Shown here piece by piece: positions 28,819-64,000 of a DNA stretch of 64,000 nt. The position numbers and the translations under genes are program-made. The stretch comes from Eledone cirrhosa. Taxonomy: Eukaryota. Every line of letters begins with the position of its first letter. Within the stretch, counting starts at the first letter, position 1. The stretch spans positions 161,014,001 to 161,078,000 of the forward strand of contig OZ024743.1 in NCBI GenBank assembly GCA_964016885.1, given 5' to 3'. The notes beneath the pieces were generated by a model, which was not told the DNA's origin, searched no databases, and saw only the letters and a list, made by a program, of their open reading frames with translations.

Positions 28819-31800
28819 GATAGCAACTAACAGCGCTGCGATCGAATGTGGCTTTTTAGCCCAGCCAATGATCTAAAATGTCTTGCACAGAGTCGGCAAC
28901 CAAAACATTTACTGGGAATAGTCGGCTGTGGTTGGAGTTCGTGTACTTTTGCATGTCGCTTGAGTCCTCCTGCTGATTTACATTCTCTACCACATGTTTG
29001 GCAAGCATGATGAGTAGCATCTCCAACAGCAGCCTGGTAGTCAACCACTGGTCTTACTTTATGACTGCGAAGATGACTTTCGAGTCCAGCTTTGCTTAGG
29101 CAGAGTCTCGCACAGACGCTGCATGTCAGAAACATAGGAGGACCCTCGCCGTCTGGAAGTGCAACAGCAATACCCTTCCTCACGTCCCGCTTTACTTTCT
29201 CGTGTGCGATTCGAGATGCCTCAAAGGCAACTTTTCCCTCATATACAGTCTTTCTCCATTTATTACGATCAGCAGCAATATTTTCCCATGTATCAGCAGA
29301 GATGTTAGCGTCTTTCAGAGAGGCCTTCAAGGAATCCTTATACCTCTTTTTTGGTTTATGTGGCGGTCGTTTTCCTTTAGCCAACTCTCCATAGAAGAGT
29401 TGTTTTGGTATTCTAGAATCCTTCATCCTGGCAAGGTGACCACTCCAACGGAGTCGCTGCTTAAGCACAAGAGCTTCTATACTGTCACACATAGAGCTTT
29501 CCAAAATCTCGACATCACTGATGTGGTCCCTCCAGCGAACGCCATGTATCCGTCTGAGACACATCTGATGGAAACGCTCCAATTGCCTAAGGTGGCGTCG
29601 ATATGTGACCCAGGTCTCGCAGGCATAAAGAAGACAAGAGAGTACACATGCCCTGTACACCCTTACCTTTGTCCTCCTGCATATGTCTCGCCGACCCCAG
29701 AGTCGCCTTTCTAGCTTTCCGAAAGCATCACTTGCTTTCCTAATCCTAAGTGAGATTTCACTGTCAAGGTTGCCGTATCGATTGACAGTGCTTCCCAGGT
29801 AGACAAACTGATCAACCACTCCAAGTCGTTTGCCATACACATAGATGTTTGGTTCAGTGTACTGCCTACCAGGTGCAGGTTGGTACATGACGACGGTTTT
29901 CTTGAGACTGACAGTCAAACCCAGGGCAGTGCAAGCGTCAGAAAATACATTCAAAATGTGCTGCATATCACTCTCTGTGTGCGCTACAAGATCGCAATCA
30001 TCTGCATACAAGAGGTCTCTTATGACTGATGTAAATACCTTTGTCTTCGCAGCAAAGCGCCTGATGTTAAATATGCTGCCTGAGGTTCGATATCGGATGT
30101 AAACACCATGCTCGCAATTCCTGAATGCAACACAGAAAACCATTGCAAAGTATATGGCAAACAGGGTCGGTGCTGGAATATCCCCCTGTTTCACTCCATT
30201 TTTTACTGAGATAGGCTCCGACATGTTACCTCCGACATTAACCCAAGCCTTCATGTCGTCATGGAAAGACCTAACTAAAGCAAGGAACTTATCAGGGCAA
30301 CCAAGTTTCTGGAGAATCTTCCATAATGCATCTCTGTTGACAGTATCGAAAGCCTTTGTCAGATCGACAAAAACCTGATACAGATCCAAGCCCTGTTCAA
30401 TGCACTTCTCCTGGAGCTGTCTAGCTGAGAAGATCATATCAGTAGTGCCGCGTCCAACACGAAAACCAGATTGACTTTCAGGAAGGACACAATCTGCAAT
30501 GTGTGTCAGCAGACGGTCCAGAAGCACCCTACATAAAACTTTCCCCACGACAGAAAGCAATGATATACCTCTGTAGTTCCCACAATCATTCCTGTTACCC
30601 TTTCCCTTGTACAAGACCACCATTACTGCATCTCTCCAGTCCTCAGGCACGGATTCATTAGCCCATATCCTTCCAAACAGAGAGTGAAGATGTTGCAGGA
30701 GTCTCTCACCACCATATTGTAGGAGCTCAGCATGTATGCCATCCATACCTGGAGATCTTCCACTGTTCAGCTTCGAAATAGCCACTGTAACCTCCACAAG
30801 TGTCGGAGGTTCTGCGAGAGCTACTTTCACAGGACTTTCCGGAATGAGATTGAGGAAATCTTCACTGACGACAGACGGCTGATTCAAAAGATCATCAAAG
30901 TGCTCTCGCCACCTTCGTAGAATTCCCTGTGAGTCACGAAGAAGTTCTTTGCCATCCCTGCTGCGAATCGGTGTCACCAGAGAAGAAGACGGTCCATAAA
31001 CCTCACGCAAGAGACTGTACAACAGCTTTGTGTTATTGCAATCAGACGCAGTTTGTATCTCACCAGCCTTCTCACTCCACCACTGATCCTTCATCTGAGA
31101 AAGACTCCGCCTAACACGTGATTTTACATCCCTGAGCTCCTCATGCAACGTATTCCTCTCCTGTGGTTTTGCCGTCAAGTAGCGTGACAGAGCACGCCTC
31201 TTATCAGCCAACAAGTCTTCTATATGTACATCATTCTCATTAAACCAGTCCTGATGTTTTCTCTGCACCAATCCCAGAACACGCCTGCCTACATCATAAA
31301 CCGACTTTTTAAGGGTCGGCCAATCCTCACCAAGATCTGCAGCCTGCATCTCTTCTTCCAATGTCCTCTTCACATTTTTATCCTTAAGACGAGCAGCATT
31401 CAATCTTTTGGGCAGGGTAACACCAGGAGCCCGGATTTTACGTTTGGTGATTAGATTCACTTTTGCGCGCACCAGGCGGTGGTCCGTCCAGCACTCAGCT
31501 CCACGAAGAACACGAACACACTGCACATCCTGTCTGTCACGCATCCTGACTAGGACGTAGTCCAAAAGATGCCATTCCTTAGATGCAGGATGCATCCATG
31601 TGGTCTTGAATTTGTTCTTTTGTTGGAACATGGTGTTGGTAACACACAGATCCAGCTCCTCACACATCTGCAGCAAGAGCATACCATTGCTGTTACACTT
31701 TCCCACCCCATGCCTTCCGATTACATTCCATGTGTTAAAATCCCTACCCACTCTAGCATTAAAGTCACCAAGCACGATGACTTTGTCTGCCTGAGGGATA

Positions 31801-32381
31801 TTTCTTAAAACACCTTTCAAGGCATGGTAAAAGGACAGTTTTTCTTCATCGACAGAATTCATAGTTGGAGCATACACACTCACCAGGGTAGCATATCTTC
31901 CCTTGTCCAGCGGAACTCTCATGGACATAAGACGCTCACTAATCCCCACTGGGAATTCTTCTAATTTATTCACCAGTACAGTCTTAACAGCAAATCCCAC
32001 CCCAGCCTCTCTTCTGGTTCCTTCATCTCTTCCTTTCCAGAAGAATGTATATTCTCCACAAAATTCCGCAAGATGACCATCTCCAGCTAACCTCGTCTCA
32101 GACAAAGCCACGATGTCAAGATCGTAACGTCGAAGCTCCTTCGCAACAAGAGTGGTCCTTCGTTCAGGACGCTCCAAAGAATCCCCGTCAAGCAGCGTCC
32201 GTACGTTCCAGCAGCCAAGACTAAATGCCCTGTTTGGCTCTATTACAATGGCACGATGACGGGCGGGCCCAGGTTGTGATAACTTGGGTCCCCTGCCCTT
32301 ATTGCCAATGATCTCTTTTGTTCCAGAACCCAAATTGGCAATTATCTCGTTTACATTGTTCTGGAACATCATTGAATTGGG

Positions 32382-32412
<31 letters not shown>

Positions 32413-32417
32413 TAATA

Positions 32418-32452
<35 letters not shown>

Positions 32453-32819: not shown

Positions 32820-35800
32820 CAATAATAATAACGACAACAACAATAATAATATACATATACATATATATATATACACACACACGCACACACATAACCATAT
32901 CTACACACACACACACACACACGATAGCAACTAACAGCGCTGCGATCGAATGTGGCTTTTTAGCCCAGCCAATGATCTAAAATGTCTTGCGCAGAGTCGG
33001 CAACCAAAACATTTACTGGGAATAGTCGGCTGTGGTTGGAGTTCGTGTACTTTTGCATGTCGCTTGAGCCCTCCTGCTGATTTACATTCTCTACCACATG
33101 TTTGGCAAGCATGATGAGTAGCATCTCCAACAGCAGCCTGGTAGTCAACCACTGGTCTTACTTTATGACTGCGAAGATGACTTTCGAGTCCAGCTTTGCT
33201 TAGGCAGAGTCTCGCACATACGCTGCATGTCAGCATCATAGGAGGACCCTCGCCGTCTGGAAGTGCAACAGCAATGCCCTTCCTCACATCCTGCTTTACT
33301 TTCTCGTATGCGATTCGAGATGCCTCAAAGGCAACTTTTCCCTCATATACAGTCTTTCTCCATTTATTACGATCAGCAGCAATATTCTCCCATGTATCAG
33401 CAGAGATGTTAGCGTCTTTCAGAGAGGCTTTCAAGGAATCCTTATACCTCTTTTTTGGTTTATGTGGCGGTCGTTTTCCTTTAACCAACTCTCCATAAAA
33501 GAGTTGTTTTGGTATTCTAGAATCCTTCATCCTGGCAAGGTGACCACTCCAACGGAGTCGTTGCTTAAGCACAAGAGCTTCTATACTGTCACACATAGAG
33601 CTTTCCAAAATCTCGACATCACTGATGTGGTCCCTCCAGTGAACGCCATGAATCCGTCTGAGACACATCTGATGGAAACGCTCCAATTGCTTAAGGTGGT
33701 GTCGATATGTGACCCAGGTCTCGCAGGCATAAAGAAGACAAGAGAGCACACATGCCCTGTACACCTTTACCTTTGTCCTCCTGCATATGTCTCGCCGACC
33801 CCAGAGTCGCCTTTCTAGCTTTCCGAAAGTATCACTTGCTTTCCTAATCCTAAGTGAGATTTCACTGTCAAGGTTGCTGTATCGATTGACAGTGCTTCCC
33901 AGGTAGACAAACTGATCAACCACTCCAAGTCGTTTGTCATACACATAGATGTTTGGTTCAGTGTACTGCTTACCAGGGGCAGGTTGGTACATGACGACGG
34001 TTTTCTTGAGACTGACAGTCAGACCTAGGGCAGTGCAAGCGTCAGAAAATGCATTCAAAATGTGCTGCATATCACTCTCTGTGTGCGCTACAAGATCGCA
34101 ATCATCTGCATACAAGAATACTTTTGTCTTCGCAGCAAAGCGCCTGATGTTAAATATACTGCCTGAGGTTCGATATCGGATGTAAACACCATGCTCGCAA
34201 TTCCTGAATGCAATACAGAAAACCATTGCAAAGTATATGGCAAACAGGGTCGGTGTGGGAATATCCCCCAGTTTCACTCCATTTTTTACTGAGATAGGCT
34301 CCGACATGTTACCCCCGACATTAACCCAAGCCTTCATGTCGTCATGGAAAGACCTAACTAAAGAAGGAACTTATCAGGGCAACCAAGTTTCTGGAGAACC
34401 TTCCATAATGCAACTCTGTTAACAGTATCGAAAGCTTTTGTCAGATCGACAAAAACCTGATACAGATCCAAGCCTTGTTCCATGCACTTCTCCTGGAGCT
34501 GTCTAGCTGAGAAGTTCATATCAGCAGTGCCGCGTCCAGCACGAAAACCAGATTGACTTTCAGGAAGAACATAATCTGCAATGTGTGTCAGCAGACGGTC
34601 CAGAAGCACCCTACATAAAACTTTCCCTACGACAGAAAGCAATGATATACCTCTGTAGTTCCCATAATCGTTCCTGTTACCCTTTCCCTTGTACAAGACC
34701 ACCATTACTGCATCTCTCCAGTCCTCAGGTACGGATTCATTAGCCCATATCCTGCCAAACAAAGAGTGAAGATATTGCAGGAGTCTCTCACCACCATATT
34801 GTAGGAGCTCAGCATGTATGCCATCCATACCTGGAGATCTTCCACTGTTCAGCTTCGAAATAGCCACTGCAACCTCCACAAGCGTCGGAGGTTCTGCGAG
34901 AGCTACTTTCACAGGACTTTCTGGAATGAGATTGAGGAAATCTTCACTGACGACAGACGACTGATTCAAAAGATCATCAAAGTGCTCTCGCCACCTTCGT
35001 AGAATTCCTTGTGAGTCACGAAGAAGTTCTTTGCCATCCTTGCTGCGAAGCGGTGTCACCAGAGAGGAAGACGGTCCATAAACCTCACGCAAGAGACTGT
35101 ACAACAGCTTTGTGTTATTGGAATCAGACGCAGTTTGTATCTCACCAGCCTTCTCACTCCACCACTGATCCTTCATCTGAGAAAGACTCCGTCTAACACG
35201 TGATTTTACATCCCTGAGTTCCTCATGCAACGTATTCCTCTCCTGTGGCTTTGCCGTCAAGTAGCGTGACAGAACACGCCTCTTATCAGCCAACAAGTCT
35301 TCTATATGTACATCATTCTCATTAAACCAGTCCTGATGTTTCCTCTGCGCCAATCCCAGAACACGCCTGCCTACATCATAAACCGACTTTTTAAGGGTCG
35401 GCCAATACTCACCAAGATCTGCAGCCTGCATCTCTTCTTCCAATGTCCTCTTCACATTTTTATCCTTAAGACGAGCAGCATTCAATCTTTTGGGCAGGGC
35501 AACACCAGGAGCCCGGATTTTACGTTTAGTGATTAGTTTCACTTTTGCGCGTACCAGGCGGTGGTCCGTCCAGCACTCAGCTCCACGAAGAACACGAACA
35601 CACTGCACATCCTGTCTGTCACGCATCCTGGCTAGGACGTAGTCTAAAAGATGCCATTACTTAGATGCAGGATGCATCCATGTGGTCTTGAATTTGTTCT
35701 TTTGTTGGAGCATGGTGTTGGTAACACACAGATCCAGCTCCTCACACATCTGCAGCAGGAGCATACCATTGCTGTTACACTTTCCCACCCCATGCCTTCC

Positions 35801-38800
35801 GATTACATTCCATGTGTTAAAATCCCTACCCACTCTATCATTAAAGTCACCAAGCACGATGACTTTGTCTGCCTGAGGGATATTTCTTAAAACACCTTTC
35901 AAGGATACCTTTTCCTCATCGACAGAACTCATAGTTGGAGCATACACACTCACCAGGGTAGCATATCTTCCCTTGTCCAGCGGAACTCTCATGGACATAA
36001 TACGCTCACTAATCCCTACTGGGAATTCTTCTAATTTGTTCACAAGTACAGTCTTAACAGCAAATCCTACCCCAGCCTCTCTTCTGGTTCCTTCATCTCT
36101 TCCTTTCCAGAAGAATGTATATTCTCCACAAAATTCCGTAAGATGACCATCTCCAGCTAACCTCGTCTCAGATAAAGCCACGATGTCAAGATCATAACGT
36201 CGAAGCTCCTTTGCAACAAGAGCGGTCCTTCGTTCAGGACGCTCCAAGGAATCCCTGTCAAGCAGCGTCCGTACGTTCCAGCAGCCAAGACTAAATGCCT
36301 TGTTTGGCTCTATTACAATGGCACGATGACGAGCGGGCCCAGGCTGTGATAACCTGGAGCCCTGCCCTTATTGCCAATGATCTTTTTTGTTCCAGAACCT
36401 AAATTGCCAATTATCTCTTTTATATTGTTCTGGTACATCATTGAATTTGAAAAAAAAAAAAGTAATAATAATGTTTGGACAGCTTGAGGGGAAAGAAAGA
36501 GGCAACGACTTGATCCCTGAGGCGGAACAAACTAAAACATTCTGGAGAGGAATATGGGAGCAGGATGTTAGACATAATGACCAGGCAGTGTGGATTGAGA
36601 CAGTACAGAAGGAGATCGGTGAACAGGCACACCAACAAACTGATTTGAGTATCACAGTTGAAACTCTTAAGGGGCAGGCCAAAAAACTAACCAACTGGAA
36701 ATCACCAGGCCCAGATGGTGTGCAGGGGTATTGGATTAAAAATATAACATCCCTCCACCCGAAACTGACAACCATGTTCAATGACTGCTTGATGTCAGGT
36801 GAGGTACCAGAGTGGTTGACAAAAGGTACCACAGTTCTGATAATGAAAGACCGAATCAAGGGTAATGATATTACCAACTATAGACCTATCACATGTCTGT
36901 CCGTAATGTGGAAACTGTTGACGAGCATTGTGTCTGAGGAAATCTACCATCACCTCCACACAAACAACTTGTTACCGGACGAACAGAAAGGATGCCGAAA
37001 GAAGTCACGTGGTACAAAGGACCAGTTACTTATTGATAAGATGGTAATGGGGAATTGCAGGAGGAGACACACTGATCTTGCCATGGGATGGATAGACTAC
37101 AGAAAGGCATTTGACATGGTGCCTCATTCTTGGATCACCAAAAGCCTGGAGTTCTTCAAGGTGGCAGATAACATCAGACAGTTGTTGGGCAAAAGTATGA
37201 GGTCCTGGGAAACAGAGTTGACATCAACTGGAGAATCCTTGGGAAGCGTGAAGATCAAGAGAGGTATCTTCCAGGGAGATAGCCTGTCCCCTCTGTTGTT
37301 TGTCCTTGCCCTGATGCCCCTGACCAGTGTACTGCGAAAAGTGAGAGCAGGATACGGGTTGGGAAAGGAAGGGCTTACTATCAATCACCTCCTCTTCATG
37401 GACGATCTTAAGCTCTTCGGGAAGAGTGAGAAGGAGTTGCATGTGCTTGTTGACACTGTCCGTATTTTCAGCAGTGATATATGTATGCAGTTTGGTATTA
37501 GTAAGTGTGGAGTCATTGTGATGAGGAGGGGTAGGTTGAGCAGAAGTAACGGAATCCAGATACCAACAGGTGAGATGATAAAGGAAATTGACTCTGAGGA
37601 AGGATACAAGTATTTGGGCGTTCTGGAGGCTGATGGCATAAAGAACAAAAAAAAAATGAAGGAATTGTTAAGAACTGAATACATTCGGAGAGTAAGGAGT
37701 GTATTGAAGTCACATTTGAACAGCAGAAATGCCATAAGCGCAGTAAATTCCCGAGCTGTGTCTATTATTAGGTACAGTGCGGGAATTCTGAGATGGAATG
37801 TTGCTGAACAAAAAGAAATGGATAGGAAGACTAGGAAGCTATTGACTATCTACAACATGTTCCACAAGAGGAGTGATGTCGATAGACTCTACTTAAGGAG
37901 ATCTGAGGGTGGAAGAGGTCTTATCAGCATAGAGGACTGTGTTCAGATGGAGAAAAACAACCTACACAAATACGTGACTGATAGTAAGGAGCCAATGCTC
38001 AGAACTGTACTGAAGGAGGGGACAATAGGCCAGGGGATGTCCAAGGAGGAAATAACATCAAGGAGAAAGAGCAGCCTTCAGGAAAAATCCCTTCATAGTA
38101 CCTTCTTTGAGAAAACTGAATTCAGAGATCCACAGACATGGAACTGGTTGAAAAGAGGAGACCTTAAAAAGGCTACAGAAGGAATGTTAATGGCTGCGTA
38201 GGAGCAGGCCCTCAAAACGAAGTGGTTGAAACACCATATTTACAAGGAGGAAGCTAGCCCACTGTGCAGGATCTGTGGAGAGAGAGAGGAGACTGTGGCT
38301 CACATTGTATCCGAGTGTAAACACCTAGCCCATACCCACTATAAGGGCTGGAGACATGATGTGATGGGCAGGGTGATCCACTGGCACCTGTGCAAAGTAA
38401 ACAATTTACCACATTCTGAGAAATGGTATGAGCATAAGCTTGAGACGGTGATAGAGAACGATCAGGTGAAGGTGCTGTGGGATTTTAGGATACAGACGGA
38501 CAAGAAACTGGAACACAATAGACCTGACCTGGTGGTTGTGGACAAAGAAAAAAGATCGTGTCTGATTGTGGATGTGGCCTGCCCATTCGACACGAGAGTG
38601 CAAGAGAAGGAGAGGGGGAAAATTAACCGATACCAGGACTTAAAGTGGGAATTAAAAAGGATTTGGAACTGCCATGAAGTCAAAGTGATCCCGATTGTCA
38701 TAGGCGCACTGGGGACTATCTCCAAAAGTTTCCAGGGATGGTTAAAGAAAATCGGCCCCTTCACGCTTTTTGGAACGCTTCAAAAGGCATGCTTGCTGTG

Positions 38801-50662: not shown

Positions 50663-50852
50663 TATATATATTATATATTATATATATAAACATATATATA
50701 TGTATATATATATGTATGTATGTGTATATATATATATATATATATTTTTTTTTATATATGAAGTATTTCCGTAGGAAGGGTAAAAGAAAGGAGATTGTTC
50801 TATGTATGCTATAGAGCTATTTAGTTATGTAATAAACAACATAAGACAATTA

Positions 50853-50925
50853 TTCCATTTACCAAAGGTTTCAAAAAGACAGACGAGCTCAACACAGACG
50901 TCAAAAATCGCTCATCAGAATGAAA
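50853..50925 (-). ncRNA. Type I hammerhead in the inverted pLTR (stem II degenerate)
   Basis: TTTCATT-CTGATGA-[GACG...CGTC weak stem II]-GAAA-CC ttt GG-TA^-AATGGAA. Confidence 0.65.
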
Positions 50926-51077
50926 ATGTCATATGGACGTAAGATATAAATTTAAATACAAAGGTTACAACAATTGAAAGCGAGGCTGATATATAATAAA
51001 ATAAAGATAAGAAATAAAATTAAATAACGGGAGAAATATACACACTGAAATAGAATGTAAGGTTATGGGGAAAATTA

Positions 51078-51113
<36 letters not shown>

Positions 51114-51119
<6 letters not shown>

Positions 51120-51174
51120 AAAAGTATGACCCCGACGGCAGAGCTCAAGCCGTTTCGACGGCTATTTCTGGACT
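51114..51174. mobile_element. Palindromic element, copy 3 (single arm ending at the apex)
   Basis: (TA)n-GAAAAAAGTATGACCCCGACGGCAGAGCTCAAGCCGTTTCGACGGCTATTTCTGGACT; homology stops at the hairpin centre. Confidence 0.7.
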
Positions 51175-52706
51175 AAATTAGAATGTTTAGCCTGGTGAAT
51201 AAATAGCCGAACTTGTCAAAGGGGTACTTCCTTATATGGGAAGATTGTAGTTGTCAAGAGGATTGGTTAAAATTTGTTGTAAACACAAATAAGTCTATCA
51301 TGGCATTTGGTGGGAGATAGGGGTGGCTGAACTTGCCTGTAGAACAATAGGGGAGTGAGTGGAGCGGACAAGCGTTGAAAGTGATATGTATACAGCAGGT
51401 TATAAGGATAGTTTATGAAGTGGAGGAGGGAGGTTATAGAATAGGTAATTCGAATGAGAGTAGGAGACAATAAAAGAATATAATAGAGACAAAGAAAAAA
51501 AGAAAAAAAAGAAAATAGTGAGAAATGAATAAAAAATCACAATGCTAACTTACAATTACAGGTTAATAAGTTGAGAATAGAAAAAACTTGTAGAAATTGA
51601 GTAGTAACAAAACTGATACAAAATTAAAGGGGTCGAAAACATCTGCTATAAGTAGTTAGTAAAACGTAATCGGCCAATTCTATCTTAAAATTACAGGGGT
51701 GGGGGACTGGTGCTACAGAGGCCCGATGGACTGCATCGGGGTAGGCGAAATGGGAAAAGCAGAGGAGGAAGAAAATAGGGGGTGGAAGGAAGTGATAGGA
51801 TGAGACAGGGGGAAGAAGAAGACAAAGACGAAAAGAAAAGAGATACATCTACCTATGTAAGCTGGGGTTTCCCCTAACTTATTCGGCAAGTGGGGGGGGG
51901 TATCAGCCCTTGTCTACCCACTCTGGTCGTTATGGGGTTTGAGGGCGAGGTAAGTCCTACGCAATCTGTGTTTGCATGCGGTTACCAGTTCATCTTTCTT
52001 GTTTAAGAGTTGGTCCTTCGAAAATAGCATATGTAATGTTTTAATGTTTCCTCCGAGCATAAGTTACACAGACGGCGTCCTCCCGTGTAAGTGTTAGCTC
52101 TGGACAGTAAGCTCCAAGTGAGATTGTAGGTTATATTATTATCTTGGAGGTCCCAGATGTAGCCCGAAAGTGTAGTGGAATGTCACCCATGGGTCAGCAC
52201 CCAGGAAGTAATCTCATGGTTCAGGAATATGGAGGATAAACGAGACACAAAATTCATCCAGTTTGACATAGAGAGTTACTATGCATCTATTACCTTACCG
52301 CTCCTTACGGCTGCCTTGGACTTTGCCGAAACACTCACACCCATCACTGACCAGGAAAGAAATATCATTCTCCACGCCAGGAAGACAGTCCTACTTTTCG
52401 ACAACTCCAAGTGGATAAAGAGAGATCTCGACTCCCCCTTCGACGTCAGCATGGGCGCGACGGATTCGGCGGAGGTTACAGATCTTATAGGATTATCCCT
52501 ACTATTTAAACTCACCGAAATGCTTCCTGCATTCGGCGGTGGTTTGTACCGGGATGTTTTGTTTTGACCACAAGAATTTTTGCAAGACGAATTGGCGCGA
52601 AACTTATTTTAATACCTCTGGAGACACTTTTTTCACATAAAACAGGTAGAATTTCCAAAATTGATCAGATTAGAGCAAATATCACGGGCGCTCTATCTCA
52701 AAATTA

Positions 52707-52743
52707 TTTTTGAAAAGCATTAGAAATGTGCAACCGGTAAAAA
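52707..52743 (+). ncRNA. Hammerhead-like variant in the 5' pLTR (second copy at 57642-57678)
   Basis: TTT-TTGAAAA-GCATT aga AATGT-GCAA-CCGG-TA^-AAA. Palindromic CCGG stem III; non-canonical core. Confidence 0.45.
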
Positions 52744-55072
52744 CTTAAAACTAAAACTGAATACTAACCAATACTTATTACTAATTTTTACTTATTCCTA
52801 ATTAAACTATTTCTCACTGGGAACAATTTGTCAGCATTTCCTTTTCCTTTTACCTATATATCACAACCAGTGTGCTACACCTCTATTCTTTTAAATATCA
52901 TATCCTCACACGAGATGCAGAAAATGCCAACAAAAACAGATAAACTCTTATCAACACAAATGAAGAGATTCTACAAGAACTCGAGAAAATTAACACCAAC
53001 CTTTCTGTGCTGGTCGACAAACTTGACTCCACAAATGAGGAAACCATCACCGGATACAAACCCTTCGAAATCGGCGATAAACTTCAAAACCTTTGCGATA
53101 CTATCCAAACTATGTTCACTACTACCAAACCAGGAAAAACCAACGAAGAACCATGTGAGATTGATTCATACAAAATGAAAATTCGAACAATTCCAAAATG
53201 GAACAGATCCCTCAGAGACAGAAAGTTCTCATTCTGGAAGATGATACAAAATCACAACAAAGCGGAGATATATGAAAAATGGCTTAACTCAACCCCTCTA
53301 ACTCTCCCCCGTAAAATACAAATAAAGTCCATTCCAAATGAACCCGAACCTCAAAGACACCTTAGGGAAAGAATGGCATTGGAAAAAATGGAGTCAGAAA
53401 TTGAACTTCTTAAATTGAGGGCCCAGACAAATGAGGAAAAAATCAAAACCATCGATGAAGAGATCCTCCTGGAAATCAAGAATAAGACTGAAGGCCCCAA
53501 GGTAGAGAAGATCTCTAAATTATGGAAAGGGGACTGCAACAGAGAAGAACTGAAATCCCTTCAACGCTGGGAAAAAAGTGTCGCTTGGTTCCTAAATTAT
53601 AAATCGACTTTTCAAACGGATTACACCTCCAATAACCCGTTCATAAAAATGGGAAAACCCATAACCGAACCGCACAACAATTCGCAAACCACCCAGCCAC
53701 TAACAATAGAAGAAGGAAACACCACACCGAAGATGAACTTCCCAACCTCGCTTCCATAAGAAGGAACAAAAATACTAGAAATCATCACCCCCAGAATGAC
53801 ATTTACAACTTTTCCCCTTCAAGGAGACACCATACCAAATCAATCAACTACTACGCGGATGCCTCATCGTCAAACATAGGGAAAAGATACCACCACCATG
53901 ATAGATGTAACAACTTCCCCACTTCAAGGGGACAGCAAGGTAATTTCCATTTTCTCAACTCTCGCTTCCACAATACACAACAAACCCACACCACACGATA
54001 CAATCAACAACGTAGGCCACCTATAACACCACAATCCAACATGGCACATAGAAACACACATCCATACTCACAATACAGGAACACCCCATTCAATCTACAA
54101 CCACGAACCCGAACCACATTTTACAACAACAAGGAATATAACAAACACAGGAGACTACTTAACATCAGCAGACAACCTCTCTACCCCAACCATTTTTTAG
54201 ACACAGCACACAGATGCAGGCAAACAAAATAACACAAGACAGGGAGGAGAAACCGAGAGTAATAAAAATGATCAATCTAACTAGTGCAGAACCAACACCC
54301 AACCTTATCAACTTACTCGCCAAAGGGCTTAAATTCACACCGACCTCACTACGTCCTAACTCCTATGAAATGAAGGAAGACATCACAGATTTCTGTAGAA
54401 AGTTACGACTCAGTGAAGAACTATTCGACCAGTACAATGAGGATGAATCATAAGCCAGAAATAGAAGCAACTACACCCCATCAAAAGGTAGAAATAAAAT
54501 CCTGGACGAATTCTGTGAACACATCACAAACTTCCCTTACCAACACTTGCAGAGACAAAACACAAGCCAAACCTCAACAAGAAAGAATGGGAAGAATTAA
54601 ATAGATTAAAAACCGACAGAACTATTACAATTAAAGAGGCTTATAAAGGGAGTACAGTAGTCCTAATGGAGACAGAATTCTATATCAACTTAGCGCTCTC
54701 CACTTTGGAAAACGAAACATACTACGAAAAGGCTGAACACTACAATCAACAGAAAATTATGAGAAACCTAAAACTCTGATCAACCAATACAAAGAAGGAG
54801 TCACTAACAAGGAATTCAGCTTCATCACAGACTTCACAAGTAAATCCAGCCTTTTCTACGGTATCCCTAAAGTACATAAAAGCGAATTAATAAGCAAGGC
54901 TTGCAAGGAAGCCACAGACATAGTCATCAATTTCCCCTCACCCAATGATCTCAAATTAAGACCTATAATAGCAGGCCCCGCTTGCGAAACCCACCGCCTC
55001 ACCAACTTCATTGATACCCTTCTCAAGCCTTTTCTCAAACACATCAAAAGCTATATAAGGGACGACCTAGAT

Positions 55073-56125
55073 ATGCTCAATCACATCCCTAATATGCCCC
55101 TTTTTGAACAAACCCTACTAGTGACGTTCGATGTAGTCAACCTATACTCCAACATCCCCCAAAACCTAGGAATAGAAGCTATCGAATTCTGGCTGGATAA
55201 TTACCACAATGAACTCCCACAATGCATCAAAAAAGAATTCGTGATAGAAGGACTCAAATTGATCTTGGAGAACAATTACTTCGTTTTCAATAACAAATCC
55301 TACAGGCAGAAATCTGGGACGGCTATGGGAACGAAAACAGCCCCCACGTATGCCAACCTAGTCATGGAATACCTGGAAATCACCCTCTACACTAAAGTAC
55401 TAAACAAATTTGGAAACACTCTCCACTTACACATAAAAAATAACAGGAAGCGATATCTAGATGACTGCTTCATCCTTTGGCACGAAAACATCGAGAAACT
55501 TAAAGAATTTCACACCCTTATAAATGGGCTCAACACGAATATTATCTTTACGATGGAATACAGCCATCAACAACTCCCCTTCCTCGACATCCTCATTAAG
55601 ATTCATAACAAAAAAATAGAAACAGACATATACTACAAGCCCACAAACTCCAAGCAATATCTTCTTTTCAACTCTTGCCACCCTAGACACGTTAAAATTA
55701 ATATTCCCTACAACTTAGCCAAGAGAATCTGTACTATAGTCTCCAATAAATACACCTGTTACTTACGGCTACAAGAACTAAAGGACACACTCATAGGCAG
55801 GGACTACCCTGCATCACTAATTGACAATGGAATCCAACGTTCCCTAAAACTTAGTACCCAGGACCTTAAACACCCTAAAGTAAATCAACCGAAACTAAAA
55901 GCTCTTCCATACATCTCCACACACAACCCCCTCAACAATGAGGCCTTTGACACCATCCTCCAGAACATCCCTGTGTTAAAAAAGGACCATAGAATGAACC
56001 AAATCCTTCGAACACACGATATCATCAGGAGCAAAAGACAATCTAAGTCAATGAAAAACATCCTAACACATGCCAAAGTACTGCCAAACACAACAACGAA
56101 ACCTACAGTAAAAAAAATGCGATAG
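55073..56125 (+). pseudogene. Penelope-type RT core fragment
   Basis: FDVVNLYSNI, GTAMG, YLDD, TDIYYKPT, SCHP; frameshifted on both sides. Confidence 0.85.
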
Positions 56126-56948
56126 ACCCAACTGTGGCATATGCATCAACCTAGTAGAGGGTTCGGAATTCTATTTCAAAGAAGGACAACGTTTTATAGT
56201 AAAACACAATTTCACATGCGCATCAGAAAATCTAATATATGTATTAACTTTCTCAGGTTGTCGAGAACAATACATAGGCCAGACCAAAAACAGCCTTCGC
56301 CAACGCATGACTGTTCATAGATCCCAAATTAAAATACGGGAATACAGGAAAATACCACTGAGTGAACACATTGATACCTGTGCCGCCCAAAATCATCCCA
56401 ACTTTAGAATCTTTCCCATTCTACAAATTTAAAGATAATGCCACCCACACCCAGCGCATCAGCAAGGAATCTCACTTTATTAACAAATACGGACCCCGTC
56501 TAAACACTTTTCCCTAAGACGAACTCACAACATACACACGTCAACATACATACCTACATCAGCATACATCCTACATACATCTCTATCCACATATAAACAC
56601 AATGACATACGTAAACACACATGTTCTATGGTGCAACACAAATATACACAAATTTGCATACCTTTTGATGTCTATAGACACACACTCATACATATACGCA
56701 CACATGCATTGCATACTGATGGGCACATACATATTTGTACACAAGTATTCCAATACGGCAGGGCCTACTGGATTCCCCTTGCAGTACGTACAATCCGGAC
56801 ACTCACACACACCTTGGTGTTATGACAATACTATATATCATTTCACACCTTTTATTATTAATGTTTTTGGTGTTCTCTTGAGAGAATCGTTTTTGATGAA
56901 AATATCGAATAATGTACACCATTTTTACCAGTATCACAAAATACTGGT

Positions 56949-56995
<47 letters not shown>

Positions 56996-57178
56996 CACAC
57001 ACACATATACACACACACATACACACGCGTACACTAACATACAAAGAGACATATACACACACACACACTTCTCCGTATAAGACAAGAGCTGAAAAATATA
57101 TTTCAACATGTTAAAATATCCCCCACACACGTACAGACACATTCCTACTGACCGAACCCTCTACCACGAATTACTCTG

Positions 57179-57254
<76 letters not shown>

Positions 57255-57826
57255 ATTTGTCTTAATAGGCACCTGAACTGTTGACCTTTCAACATGACTG
57301 CAATTCACACACACATCCCTACTGACCATTATCACAACAATGAACCTCTTTACTACCCACACACATATTTGTCTTGAAAGACTTATTTTTCAGCGACTTC
57401 TCAATCAGGCGAAAAGGGAAACTCTTCGACAAACCTACATTTGGCGCAAAATCAATTTTTAACATTCACGTGACCTCTACCGACCAATCAAAATTGTTTT
57501 GACCACAAGAATTTTTGCAACACAAATTGGCGCGAAACTTATTTTAATACCCCTGGAGACACTTTTTTCACATAAAGCAGGTAGAATTTCCAAAACTGAT
57601 CAGATTAGAGCAAACATCACGGGCGCTCTATCTCAAAATTATTTTTGAAAAGCATTTGAAATGCGCAACCGGTAAAAACTTAAAACTAAAACTGAATACT
57701 AACCAATACTTATTACTAATTTTTACTTATTCCTAATTAAACTATTTCTCACTGGGAACAATTTGTCAGCATTTTCTTTTCCTTTTACCAATATATCACA
57801 ACTCGTGTGTTACACCTCTATTCTTT

Positions 57827-57864
<38 letters not shown>

Positions 57865-60630: not shown

Positions 60631-60935
60631 ATTGACAAACACACATATGTATATATACACGCACATACACACGCATATATATATATATACAAACATACAC
60701 ACACATATATATATACACGTACATAGACATACATACAAACATACACACACATATGTATGTATATATATATATATATATTGGAATAAATGCTCTGAAATAG
60801 CGATATATATGTGAATATAGACATAGAATATTCGAAAATATTCTGTATGTTTATAATAAACATTTTGAAGACCTAATCGCTATAGAATAGAATACGTCAC
60901 GTATTACAATTAGATTCTCGATAAAAGCAAGGGAA

Positions 60936-60978
60936 GTAATCTACGCGTTTCATTCTTGTTAGAAATCATCAGGACCAC
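60936..60978 (-). ncRNA. Minimal type I hammerhead, left arm (repeats at 61246, 61556, 61866, 62176, 62486, 62796)
   Basis: Reverse complement of GTAATCTACGCGTTTCATTCTTGTTAGAAATCATCAGGACCAC. Confidence 0.85.
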
Positions 60979-63070
60979 ATATCCAGTGCTTTTATCGAGA
61001 ATGACACAGCTAGAGACTTATAGAATACTTAGCTGTGTACAGGAACTGGTTTGAAAGAGCGGTTGCCGGTCCGGCAGAAATTAGAAATTGGAATAAATGC
61101 TCTGAAATAGCGATATATATGTGAATATAGACATAGAATATTCGAAAATATTCTGTATGTTTATAATAAACATTTTGAAGACCTAATCGCTATAGAATAG
61201 AATACGTCACGTATTACAATTAGATTCTCGATAAAAGCAAGGGAAGTAATCTACGCGTTTCATTCTTGTTAGAAATCATCAGGACCACATATCCAGTGCT
61301 TTTATCGAGAATGACACAGCTAGAGACTTATAGAATACTTAGCTGTGTACAGGAACTGGTTTGAAAGAGCGGTTGCCGGTCCGGCAGAAATTAGAAATTG
61401 GAATAAATGTTCTGAAATAGCGATATATATGTGAATATAGACATAGAATATTCGAAAATATTCTGTATGTTTATAATAAACATTTTGAAGACCTAATCGC
61501 TATAGAATAGAATACGTCACGTATTACAATTAGATTCTCGATAAAAGCAAGGGAAGTAATCTACGCGTTTCATTCTTGTTAGAAATCATCAGGACCACAT
61601 ATCCAGTGCTTTTATCGAGAATGACACAGCTAGAGACTTATAGAATACTTAACTGTGTACAGGAACTGGTTTGAAAGAGCGGTTGCCGGTCCGGCAGAAA
61701 TTAGAAATTGGAATAAATGCTCTGAAATAGCGATATATATGTGAATATAGACATAGAATATTCGAAAATATTCTGTATGTTTATAATAAACATTTTGAAG
61801 ACCTAATCGCTATAGAATAGAATACGTCACGTATTACAATTAGATTCTCGATAAAAGCAAGGGAAGTAATCTACGCGTTTCATTCTTGTTAGAAATCATC
61901 AGGACCACATATCCAGTGCTTTTATCGAGAATGACACAGCTAGAGACTTATAGAATACTTAGCTGTGTACAGGAACTGGTTTGAAAGAGCGGTTGCCGGT
62001 CCGGCAGAAATTAGAAATTGGAATAAATGCTCTGAAATAGCGATATATATGTGAATATAGACATAGAATATTCGAAAATATTCTGTATGTTTATAATAAA
62101 CATTTTGAAGACCTAATCGCTATAGAATAGAATACGTCACGTATTACAATTAGATTCTCGATAAAAGCAAGGGAAGTAATCTACGCGTTTCATTCTTGTT
62201 AGAAATCATCAGGACCACATATCCAGTGCTTTTATCGAGAATGACACAGCTAGAGACTTATAGAATACTTAGCTGTGTACAGGAACTGGTTTGAAAGAGC
62301 GGTTGCCGGTCCGGCAGAAATTAGAAATTGGAATAAATGCTCTGAAATAGCGATATATATGTGAATATAGACATAGAATATTCGAAAATATTCTGTATGT
62401 TTATAATAAACATTTTGAAGACCTAATCGCTATAGAATAGAATACGTCACGTATTACAATTAGATTCTCGATAAAAGCAAGGGAAGTAATCTACGCGTTT
62501 CATTCTTGTTAGAAATCATCAGGACCACATATCCAGTGCTTTTATCGAGAATGACACAGCTAGAGACTTATAGAATACTTAGCTGTGTACAGGAACTGGT
62601 TTGAAAGAGCGGTTGCCGGTCCGGCAGAAATTAGAAATTGGAATAAATGCTCTGAAATAGCGATATATATGTGAATATAGACATAGAATATTCGAAAATA
62701 TTCTGTATGTTTATAATAAACATTTTGAAGACCTAATCGCTATAGAATAGAATACGTCACGTATTACAATTAGATTCTCGATAAAAGCAAGGGAAGTAAT
62801 CTACGCGTTTCATTCTTGTTAGAAATCATCAGGACCACATATCCAGTGCTTTTATCGAGAATGACACAGCTAGAGACTTATAGAATACTTAGCTGTGTAC
62901 AGGAACTGGTTTGAAAGAGCGGTTGCACATATATATCGCTATTTCAGAGCATTTATTCCAATTTCTAATTTCTGCCGGACCGGCAACCGCTCTTTCAAAC
63001 CAGTTCCTGTACACAGCTAAGTATTCTATAAGTCTCTAGCTGTGTCATTCTCGATAAAAGCACTGGATAT

Positions 63071-63113
63071 GTGGTCCTGATGATTTCTAACAAGAATGAA
63101 ACGCGTAGATTAC
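63071..63113 (+). ncRNA. Minimal type I hammerhead, right arm (repeats at 63381, 63691)
   Basis: GTGGTC-CTGATGA-tTTCT aaca AGAAt-GAAA-CGCG-TA^-GATTAC. Predicted cleavage between 63107 and 63108; enclosed by the 16-bp helix ATTCTCGATAAAAGCA/TGCTTTTATCGAGAAT. Confidence 0.85.
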
Positions 63114-64000
63114 TTCCCTTGCTTTTATCGAGAATCTAATTGTAATACGTGACGTATTCTATTCTATAGCGATTAGGTCTTCAAAATGTTTATTATAAAC
63201 ATACAGAATATTTTCGAATATTCTATGTCTATATTCACATATATATCGCTATTTCAGAGCATTTATTCCAATTTCTAATTTCTGCCGGACCGGCAACCGC
63301 TCTTTCAAACCAGTTCCTGTACACAGCTAAGTATTCTATAAGTCTCTAGCTGTGTCATTCTCGATAAAAGCACTGGATATGTGGTCCTGATGATTTCTAA
63401 CAAGAATGAAACGCGTAGATTACTTCCCTTGCTTTTATCGAGAATCTAATTGTAATACGTGACGTATTCTATTCTATAGCGATTAGGTCTTCAAAATGTT
63501 TATTATAAACATACAGAATATTTTCGAATATTCTATGTCTATATTCACATATATATCGCTATTTCAGAGCATTTATTCCAATTTCTAATTTCTGCCGGAC
63601 CGGCAACCGCTCTTTCAAACCAGTTCCTGTACACAGCTAAGTATTCTATAAGTCTCTAGCTGTGTCATTCTCGATAAAAGCACTGGATATGTGGTCCTGA
63701 TGATTTCTAACAAGAATGAAACGCGTAGATTACTTCCCTTGCTTTTATCGAGAATCTAATTGTAATACGTGACGTATTCTATTCTATAGCGATTAGGTCT
63801 TCAAAATGTTTATTATAAACATACAGAATATTTTCGAATATTCTATGTCTATATTCACATATATATCGCTATTTCAGAGCATTTATTCCAATTTCTAATT
63901 TCTGCCGGACCGGCAACCGCTCTTTCAAACCAGTTCCTGTACACAGCTAAGTATTCTATAAGTCTCTAGCTGTGTCATTCTCGATAAAAGCACTGGATAT

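Follow-up and report, generated by a model that had tools for sequence, protein, structure and literature searches.

The window, by which we mean the whole stretch of 64,000 nucleotides of Eledone cirrhosa DNA that was analysed (G000:C4:161014001-161078000), is filled at its right end, from position 60777 onwards, by a tandem array of a 310-nt unit. Unit positions are counted from the predicted hammerhead cut (after 63107), and the two end sites are listed as in-register projections onto an internal unit. The array (L031) contains the following features:

60757-60776, no strand: (TA)n target, left flank
60777-62926, minus strand: left arm of 6.9 units (310 nt each), with the hammerhead sense directed leftward; its outer end is unit position 165, the long tailed end
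60777-60802, minus strand: 26-nt tail, unit positions 140-165, present at the left end and missing from the far end
62926: head-to-head junction with 1 nt in common; the left arm begins at unit position 186, the right arm at 129
62927-62982, plus strand: 56-nt unpaired stretch covering unit positions 130-185, equal to the offset in phase between the two truncations
62926-64000, plus strand: right arm, 9.0 units in total, continuing past the window and stopping in (TA)n at G000:C4:161079726, which is unit position 139 (short end)
63062-63127, plus strand: type I hammerhead, one per unit, predicted cut after 63107, palindromic stem III
63071-63076 and 63108-63113, plus strand: hammerhead stem I; core at 63077-63083 and 63098-63101
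63205-63224, plus strand: 8-bp hairpin (unit positions 98-117) immediately 5' of the putative short start site, with compensatory changes in a related family
63232-63246, plus strand: short (S) end site, unit positions 125-139
63270-63279, plus strand: long (L) end site, unit positions 163-172, mode 165

The array changes strand at 62926, where the two arms share one base, a C, and across an interval of 56 nt the segments 61909-62926 and 62983-64000 show 100% complementarity. A preliminary description of the window had reported this switch with its 1 nt of microhomology, as well as a left end that abuts (TA)n, and both observations hold. The unit positions 286 and 33 that it gave for the junction are consistent with ours if the unit begins at 60781, and become 186 and 129 when counted from the ribozyme cut. 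It also proposed a search for (TA)n beyond position 64000, and this repeat is indeed present where the array ends, 1,726 nt past the window edge.

A hammerhead motif was found in every unit of the array, with the core CUGAUGA/GAAA/GUA, aligned stems I and II and a U-U pair at the base of stem II. The best Rfam match, Hammerhead_HH9 at 63062-63127 on the plus strand, reached 17.7 bits (E 0.11), below the gathering score of 52, and a scan of the array at the gathering score gave zero matches, so that the hammerhead call rests on the motif and the stems. With this core and these stems aligned, the hammerhead-sense strands are directed away from the junction, as had been described. The folding energy of the hammerhead is no better than that of shuffled sequences (z -0.8), and the predicted fold of the circular unit keeps stem I formed. 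The longest open frame in the unit is 59 aa, with no ORF for an RT plus GIY-YIG, and the arrays are made of units only, without LTR, PBS or PPT architecture. Judging from its sequence, we class the 310-nt unit as a non-LTR retrozyme, a non-coding repeat with a type I hammerhead.

Other mobile elements are located in the same window. As read by eye, a LINE open frame of 1,207 aa at 28827-32450 (minus strand) includes an endonuclease-RT and C-terminal zinc-finger-like motifs, and a broken relative is found nearby at 32931-36367 (minus strand). Two Penelope-like elements (PLEs) are also present:

51117-52556: old Hydra-type PLE copy, the comparison element of the preliminary description
52187-51117, minus arm of this copy: endonuclease end and 3' part, running into (TA)n
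52186-52556, plus arm of this copy: RT, interrupted by the next element
52559-57837, plus strand: Neptune-like PLE copy with direct pLTRs, a broken relative (about 94% at the amino acid level) of an intact 784-aa family

The Hydra-type copy is 91-95% identical to its relatives; its arms diverge from a junction at 52186/52187, and its flanking (TA)n occupies 51078-51116. It had been described as a Naiad at 50761-52558 with the same layout as the array. The inverted 3' part, the divergent junction and the (TA)n are all there, but the element covers 51117-52556, the segment 50761-51077 belongs to a different element, and the type is Hydra. Naiads are recognised by a GIY-YIG N-terminal to the RT and a DKA motif, and Hydra elements by a C-terminal endonuclease without CCHH together with DKT, RWK-like and CxCX5C motifs. 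A Naiad assignment was rejected on the order of the domains in relatives L149-L151, where the RT fragment lies upstream of the endonuclease end, and on the DKT carried by related ORFs. The window copy itself has the C-terminal endonuclease end, and RWR, DKT and CxCX5C occur in relatives L125, L089 and L178, the window fragment (45% identical to L125) being too short to contain them.

Is the inverted layout peculiar to this locus? When the genome was searched with the unit, nearly every array that came up had its minus arm before its plus arm. The end motif joined to (AT)n was found 1,041 times for the L end (position 165) and 714 times for S130, with 0 matches for the reversed controls, and the genome holds at least 1,041 retrozyme insertions. 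The tail motif, which is common to related families, occurs 24,148 times. Our sample consists of 69 arrays read in L031-L097, of which 62 were complete, plus ten more complete arrays (one of them L146), giving 72 complete arrays in total; L068 (assembly gap), L092 (exceeds 12.8 kb) and L223 are outside the 72. The arms are inverted head to head in 67 of the 72 arrays and only five consist of a single arm. The inverted layout at 62926 is the rule among arrays and not the exception.

The outer ends are as regular as the inversion. One end at S (125-139) and the other at L (163-172) were observed in 66 of the 67 inverted arrays, the sole exception being L032, which stops at position 209 inside another repeat. 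As a control for selection, since 40 of the 72 arrays had been picked by the L motif, the 32 unselected arrays were considered separately: 28 are inverted and 27 of these 28 have S plus L ends, against half expected for independent ends. The tail offset between the ends is about 26-45 nt, with the exact S point blurred by the AT run of the unit itself. Arms range in length from less than one unit to more than 40 units.

Both flanks consist of at least 60% TA steps in 48 of the 58 arrays scored, the preliminary description having proposed a survey of other arrays for the inversion and for (TA)n flanks; L219 sits in an AT-rich site that is not TA. Most target duplications (TSDs) are unreadable within pure (TA)n. 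An informative duplication was recovered in seven of the 67 arrays, six of them being 12-15 nt long, compared with a mean of 0.75 and a maximum of 3 for swapped flanks. In a scripted test, the duplication was matched in six of the ten arrays that are informative at both flanks, readable only where the microsatellite is interrupted.

We considered the possibility that such arrays result from DNA-level events, including satellite amplification, extrachromosomal circles and repair inversions, or from fold-back chimeric reads. Some arrays contain periodic variants that point to later unit duplications, and no contig spanning 62926 was found among the 31 listed of 258 pieces from four public runs of organism A, both of which could be read in its favor. 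However, chimeras would mirror the flanks and produce equal ends, whereas the flanks differ and the ends are separated by a fixed tail offset. Target bases are duplicated directly, every junction is different, and protein-coding PLEs bear the same scar. The differing flanks, the unequal fixed ends and the direct duplications exclude fold-back read chimeras for the arrays, and we regard this set of explanations as a whole as highly improbable.

LINEs of the RTE, CR1 and L1 types are all abundant in the genome and LINE ORFs are plentiful in the window, and L1 twin priming also yields inverted, truncated copies with TSDs (PMC2837659), so that a LINE could be thought to move the RNA in this manner. 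Yet twin priming should fix only the 3' end, with the other start at a random internal point, and would not give a pair of fixed ends, and two fixed internal end sites with a tail have been called unique to PLEs (PMC11167929). Poly(A) was looked for in the 62 complete arrays and found in none of them. In the preliminary description, poly(A) and TSDs without inversions were taken to indicate LINE mobilisation; the poly(A) is missing, and short TSDs do occur, but together with inversions, and they are also described for Penelope elements (PMC3846280). A LINE carrier is in our view the least probable of the readings weighed here, and there is little doubt that the carrier is a PLE.

The inner junctions contain information about how the two arms came together. 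The 134 inner ends have phases that are uniform round the unit (KS p 0.26), five being within 10 nt of the cut site compared with 8.6 expected, and the phase gap between the arms is also uniform, with six of the 67 arrays falling within 15 nt where 6.7 would be expected. The asymmetric 56-nt spacer highlighted in the preliminary description does separate the arms, but it consists of ordinary unit sequence and, because the phase gap is uniform over the 67 arrays, its size is incidental; snap-back hairpins are not enriched. Clean joins make up 41 of the 56 junctions scored and overlap by 2.4 nt on average, versus 0.75 nt by chance; the other 15 have extra bases or extra pieces. The tailed arm is the longer one in 41 of 66 arrays (Wilcoxon p 0.006); a difference of more than one unit favors the tailed arm in 34 arrays and the untailed arm in 16, and arm lengths are at best weakly correlated (rho 0.19, p 0.12). 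Two arrays contain haplotype switches. The tailed arm of L052 has 17 outer units of haplotype A and 6 inner units of haplotype B, while the other arm has 12 units of B, and in L080 the corresponding numbers are 4+2 units in one arm and 7 in the other. Neither switch is mirrored, which indicates that an arm was not copied from the other arm, though later conversion could give the same pattern and the two arrays are the only such cases.

These observations bear on the published reading of head-to-head PLE repeats with junction palindromes (PMC3846280), in which the second arm follows from a single priming. The first cDNA, or an antisense RNA, would fold back and be copied, and the endonuclease would later trim the second end, in line with the attribution of the tail to endonuclease resolution (PMC8557442). 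That the two arms are usually of one haplotype and that the tailed arm tends to be longer fits such a process. On the other hand, near-perfect hairpin junctions are not in excess, either arm can be longer by more than one unit, and the switches in L052 and L080 are unmirrored, two cases which later ectopic conversion could also have made. We think that fold-back copying is quite unlikely, and infer instead that two target-primed cDNAs were joined by microhomology, an interpretation we favor over the self-priming of PMC3846280. That the two primings were independent of each other is very probable.

The variants provide hints about the template. Compared with the unit in the window, 64 arrays represent 25 haplotypes with 111 array-wide variants, and 81 singletons were found in addition. 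Several variants are private to one array and fixed in every unit of both arms, as for example in L071 (22/22 units), L053 (13/13) and L074 (14/14). Such private variants imply passage through one monomer, which fits the repeated reading of a circle. Different patterns were seen in other arrays: variants recur at 5- or 7-unit steps in L050, L070, L071 and L092, and L045 and L089 have one variant per arm at an equal distance from the outer ends, with an offset equal to the tail (42 and 26 nt) and with the other units lacking the variant. These arrays suggest that some templates were multimeric or that arrays were duplicated later.

An alternative is that a PLE carrier with two-ended priming usually copies a long read-through transcript of an existing array that has not been cut. 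The in-register variants of L045 and L089 and the periodic variants could be explained in this way, and Poseidon PAc mainly used unprocessed RNA in vitro, with hammerhead cleavage being dispensable (PMC11167929). Private variants fixed in both arms nevertheless demand a monomer bottleneck at some step, and in the stretch that both arms would have copied, two in-register shared variants stand against 42 unshared singletons. We consider an uncut template to be improbable as the usual case, although by a smaller degree than the fold-back process, and a monomeric circle to be the likely usual template. One more pattern was noted in L092 and L216 (G000:C1:97461509 onward), where one arm exceeds 12.8 kb with 41+ units and two linked variants recur irregularly, which suggests later unequal exchange or a multimeric template.

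The genome contains young, intact PLEs of two families to which the arrays can be compared. The Hydra family encodes an 832-aa ORF with RWR, DKT and CxCX5C motifs in a unit of approximately 4.2 kb, with copies about 99% identical; a Pfam search with the 832-aa protein detected no domain. Members of this family (L171-L184, L189, L190, L224-L243) often consist of two full ORFs back to back and have a 163-nt tail and a hammerhead with a CCGAAGA core. The Neptune-like family (L197-L212, L244-L263) has an upstream ORF, the 784-aa RT/GIY-YIG ORF and a degenerate hammerhead-like site. In both families, S and L ends in (TA)n were observed in all complete two-ended copies: 24/24 for Hydra (35 loci, of which 4 exceeded the stretches and 7 were one-armed or cut off) and 25/25 for the Neptune-like family (35 loci, with 1 cut off and 9 one-armed). 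All nine one-armed Neptune-like copies stop at the short site. A 13-nt duplication was found in three Hydra copies, and TSD length fails to separate the two candidate partners. A count by eye gave terminal-base reiterations of a telomerase-like kind in 8 of 24 Hydra copies; such reiterations were not seen in the Neptune copies or in the 67 arrays.

The finding of the same end rule in two intact PLE families, together with the prevalence of inverted, one-tailed arrays, the (TA)n targets and the 12-15 nt duplications, supports the earlier suggestion that a Penelope-like RT/GIY-YIG mobilised the ribozyme RNA in trans by priming at both ends. The further suggestion that the inversion is a clue to the autonomous partner fares less well, in that the inversion by itself identifies none, and the neighbouring Hydra-type copy is old. 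Measured from the hammerhead-like site, the ends are located at 126 and 164 nt in the Neptune-like family, where the site is degenerate in young copies, at 125-139 and 165 in the retrozyme, and at 47 and 210 in Hydra. Alignments of the unit with the pLTRs of Hydra-832 and Neptune-784 were no better than shuffles (p 0.23-0.80), and blastn, nhmmer and Smith-Waterman searches against Hydra-832, Hydra-830, Neptune-784 and eight other ends revealed no pLTR homology beyond hammerhead cores, the only likeness being to the cores of the non-coding repeat L062 and the unassigned end L156, apart from a single match in a TA repeat. None of 19 loci picked by the tail motif had a PLE ORF attached to it, and a flank of L040 that appeared PLE-like by eye proved not to be a PLE. 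Among the PLE families sampled, the Neptune-like 784-aa family offers the best fit by its end spacing and is a plausible candidate for the partner, at slightly less than even odds; that terminal reiterations were seen in Hydra copies only is a second, indirect pointer to it.

The hairpin before the S site is of interest because it recurs in an older retrozyme family. This family is about 75% identical to the unit (L056:2484-3107, L094:7069-7400, L128-L145), with a 316-nt period in L144. The hammerheads of the older family are different, many with a U3-A8 core, but the end region, the hairpin, the S and L ends and the inversion are the same. Its 8-bp hairpin has compensatory changes and a different tetraloop, and all eight pairs are kept in 101 of 102 locus-variant counts, and we believe that the hairpin is likely to be a recognition signal.

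At least two more hammerhead repeat families are arranged head to head beside (TA)n (L062:919-4548; L033:8400-8900; L046:6660-7330), with no ORF seen and one unit of about 490 nt, which suggests that several passengers share one machinery. A longer end on one side was also seen at many of the other TA-flanked palindromic ends sampled, and tail lengths are specific to the family, at about 26, 40, 55, 65, 80, 90, 130 and 165-180 nt. At many loci, the (TA)n left by one PLE-type insertion has been hit again by the next, resulting in nested clusters of retrozyme, Hydra and Neptune ends.

We also looked at the presence of the unit in public sequencing data. In 20 runs, X3 and X5 among them, with 17 organism labels from 16 studies, 64-85% of the words of the stretch were present, and the unit is near-identical under these labels; no RNA run was among those listed. 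Two other organisms each gave a single unbranched contig of 340 nt with a depth of 10-12, compared with summed depths of the order of 1e5 for organism A, and a third organism gave none in 12.8 million raw reads, a figure that counts neither way. Horizontal spread was considered but not accepted: trace cross-contamination fits best, and the unit under other organism labels is probably due to such contamination.

Taken together, we propose, with a probability of roughly 0.65, that the array in the window is one hammerhead retrozyme insertion made by a Penelope-like RT/GIY-YIG protein from two cDNAs, probably copied from a circular 310-nt RNA. According to this model, transcripts of arrays would be cleaved by their ribozyme and closed into circles by ligation. 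A PLE protein, predicted to form a dimer, would nick both strands of (TA)n about 12-13 nt apart. Copying would then begin from one 3' end at the short site and from the other 3' end at the long site, the two sites being internal, fixed in position and beside the conserved hairpin. Each RT would circle the template a variable number of times, covering anything between part of one unit and more than 40 units, the two cDNAs would be united by microhomology end-joining, and the tail would represent the distance between the two start sites.

More tentatively, at somewhat lower odds than the candidate partner, we hypothesize that this is the general Penelope reaction. A dimer nicking 12-13 nt apart, with each subunit locked to its own start site, would make the tail a footprint of the dimer and inverted copies the normal product. 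The hammerhead circle could then hijack the reaction without sequence likeness to its carrier, by means of the hairpin and the ribozyme spacing (139/165 versus 126/164 in the Neptune-like family), and two opposed rolling-circle reverse transcriptions would follow.

The case for the carrier of animal retrozymes rests so far on co-occurrence and homology, and the origin of the inverted repeats and tails of PLEs is, according to PMC8557442, undefined. The insertions, which are near-identical, free of ORFs and more than a thousand in number, represent a reporter library that ties retrozymes to PLE chemistry by the scar, and they argue against self-priming. They also suggest that tandem hammerhead "satellites" may be born multimeric through reverse transcription. 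The arrays are kilobase palindromes, which could yield dsRNA or fragile sites. Since the same genome provides a 310-nt RNA whose start sites are mapped as well as two PLE proteins that are intact and were active recently, a direct biochemical test can be envisaged.

For metazoan non-LTR retrozymes, Cervera and de la Pena (2020, PMC7229834) proposed a circular RNA as the RT template and saw in PLEs a strong candidate for the carrier. The unit described here resembles these retrozymes in its short tandem units, its type I hammerhead in each unit and its lack of an ORF, with TSDs of more than 4 bp reported for theirs, and it shares the U-U pair at the base of helix II with the axolotl variant of the same study. 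In contrast, the main text of that study has no inversion, tails or (TA)n targets and leaves the carrier between LINEs and PLEs, while the scar was measured here. A 2026 preprint (10.64898/2026.07.22.740005) concludes from co-occurrence and pLTR homology in vertebrates that PLEs mobilise retrozymes, and we arrive at the same carrier. The preprint favors local amplification by unequal crossover, whereas the arrays here appear to be born multimeric and inverted, and no pLTR homology was found. Our literature search found no report of inverted retrozyme arrays or one-sided tails, and the main texts of these two studies contain neither.

PLE insertions have been described as having an inverted, 5'-truncated copy, a tail of 30-40 bp often at one end and, for Hydra and Naiad, (TA)n targets (Craig et al., PMC8557442), as well as head-to-head polarity, TSDs of 8-10 bp in rotifers and trans mobilisation by pLTR sequences (Arkhipova et al., PMC3846280). 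Non-autonomous Chlamys elements with head-to-tail copies are also described for PLEs (PMC3846280, PMC8557442), and Naiads are described as being without canonical hammerheads (PMC8557442). The tail at one end, "often" or "optional" in the described PLEs, is present in all but one of the 67 inverted arrays here, in an element that is an ORF-less hammerhead monomer repeat. In these PLE papers, inversions are explained by self-priming and the tail by endonuclease resolution (PMC3846280, PMC8557442), whereas our data favor two primings. When assayed in vitro, Poseidon PAc, which is predicted to be a dimer, cuts and extends both strands of AT-rich targets, and its internal starts fall at the two limits of the tail, downstream of a hammerhead (Frangieh et al. 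2024, PMC11167929). In those experiments, as presented in PMC11167929, the strands were not seen to differ in their start sites, and inverted insertions and non-coding passengers are not addressed; here, there is one site per end.

The PLE scar itself is thus known already, and PLE carriage of retrozymes has already been proposed (PMC7229834, 10.64898/2026.07.22.740005). What is new, as far as the literature searched goes, is that the scar is near-obligate in a non-coding ribozyme repeat, that the two start sites are strictly one per end, and that the variant patterns favor two primings on a monomeric template.
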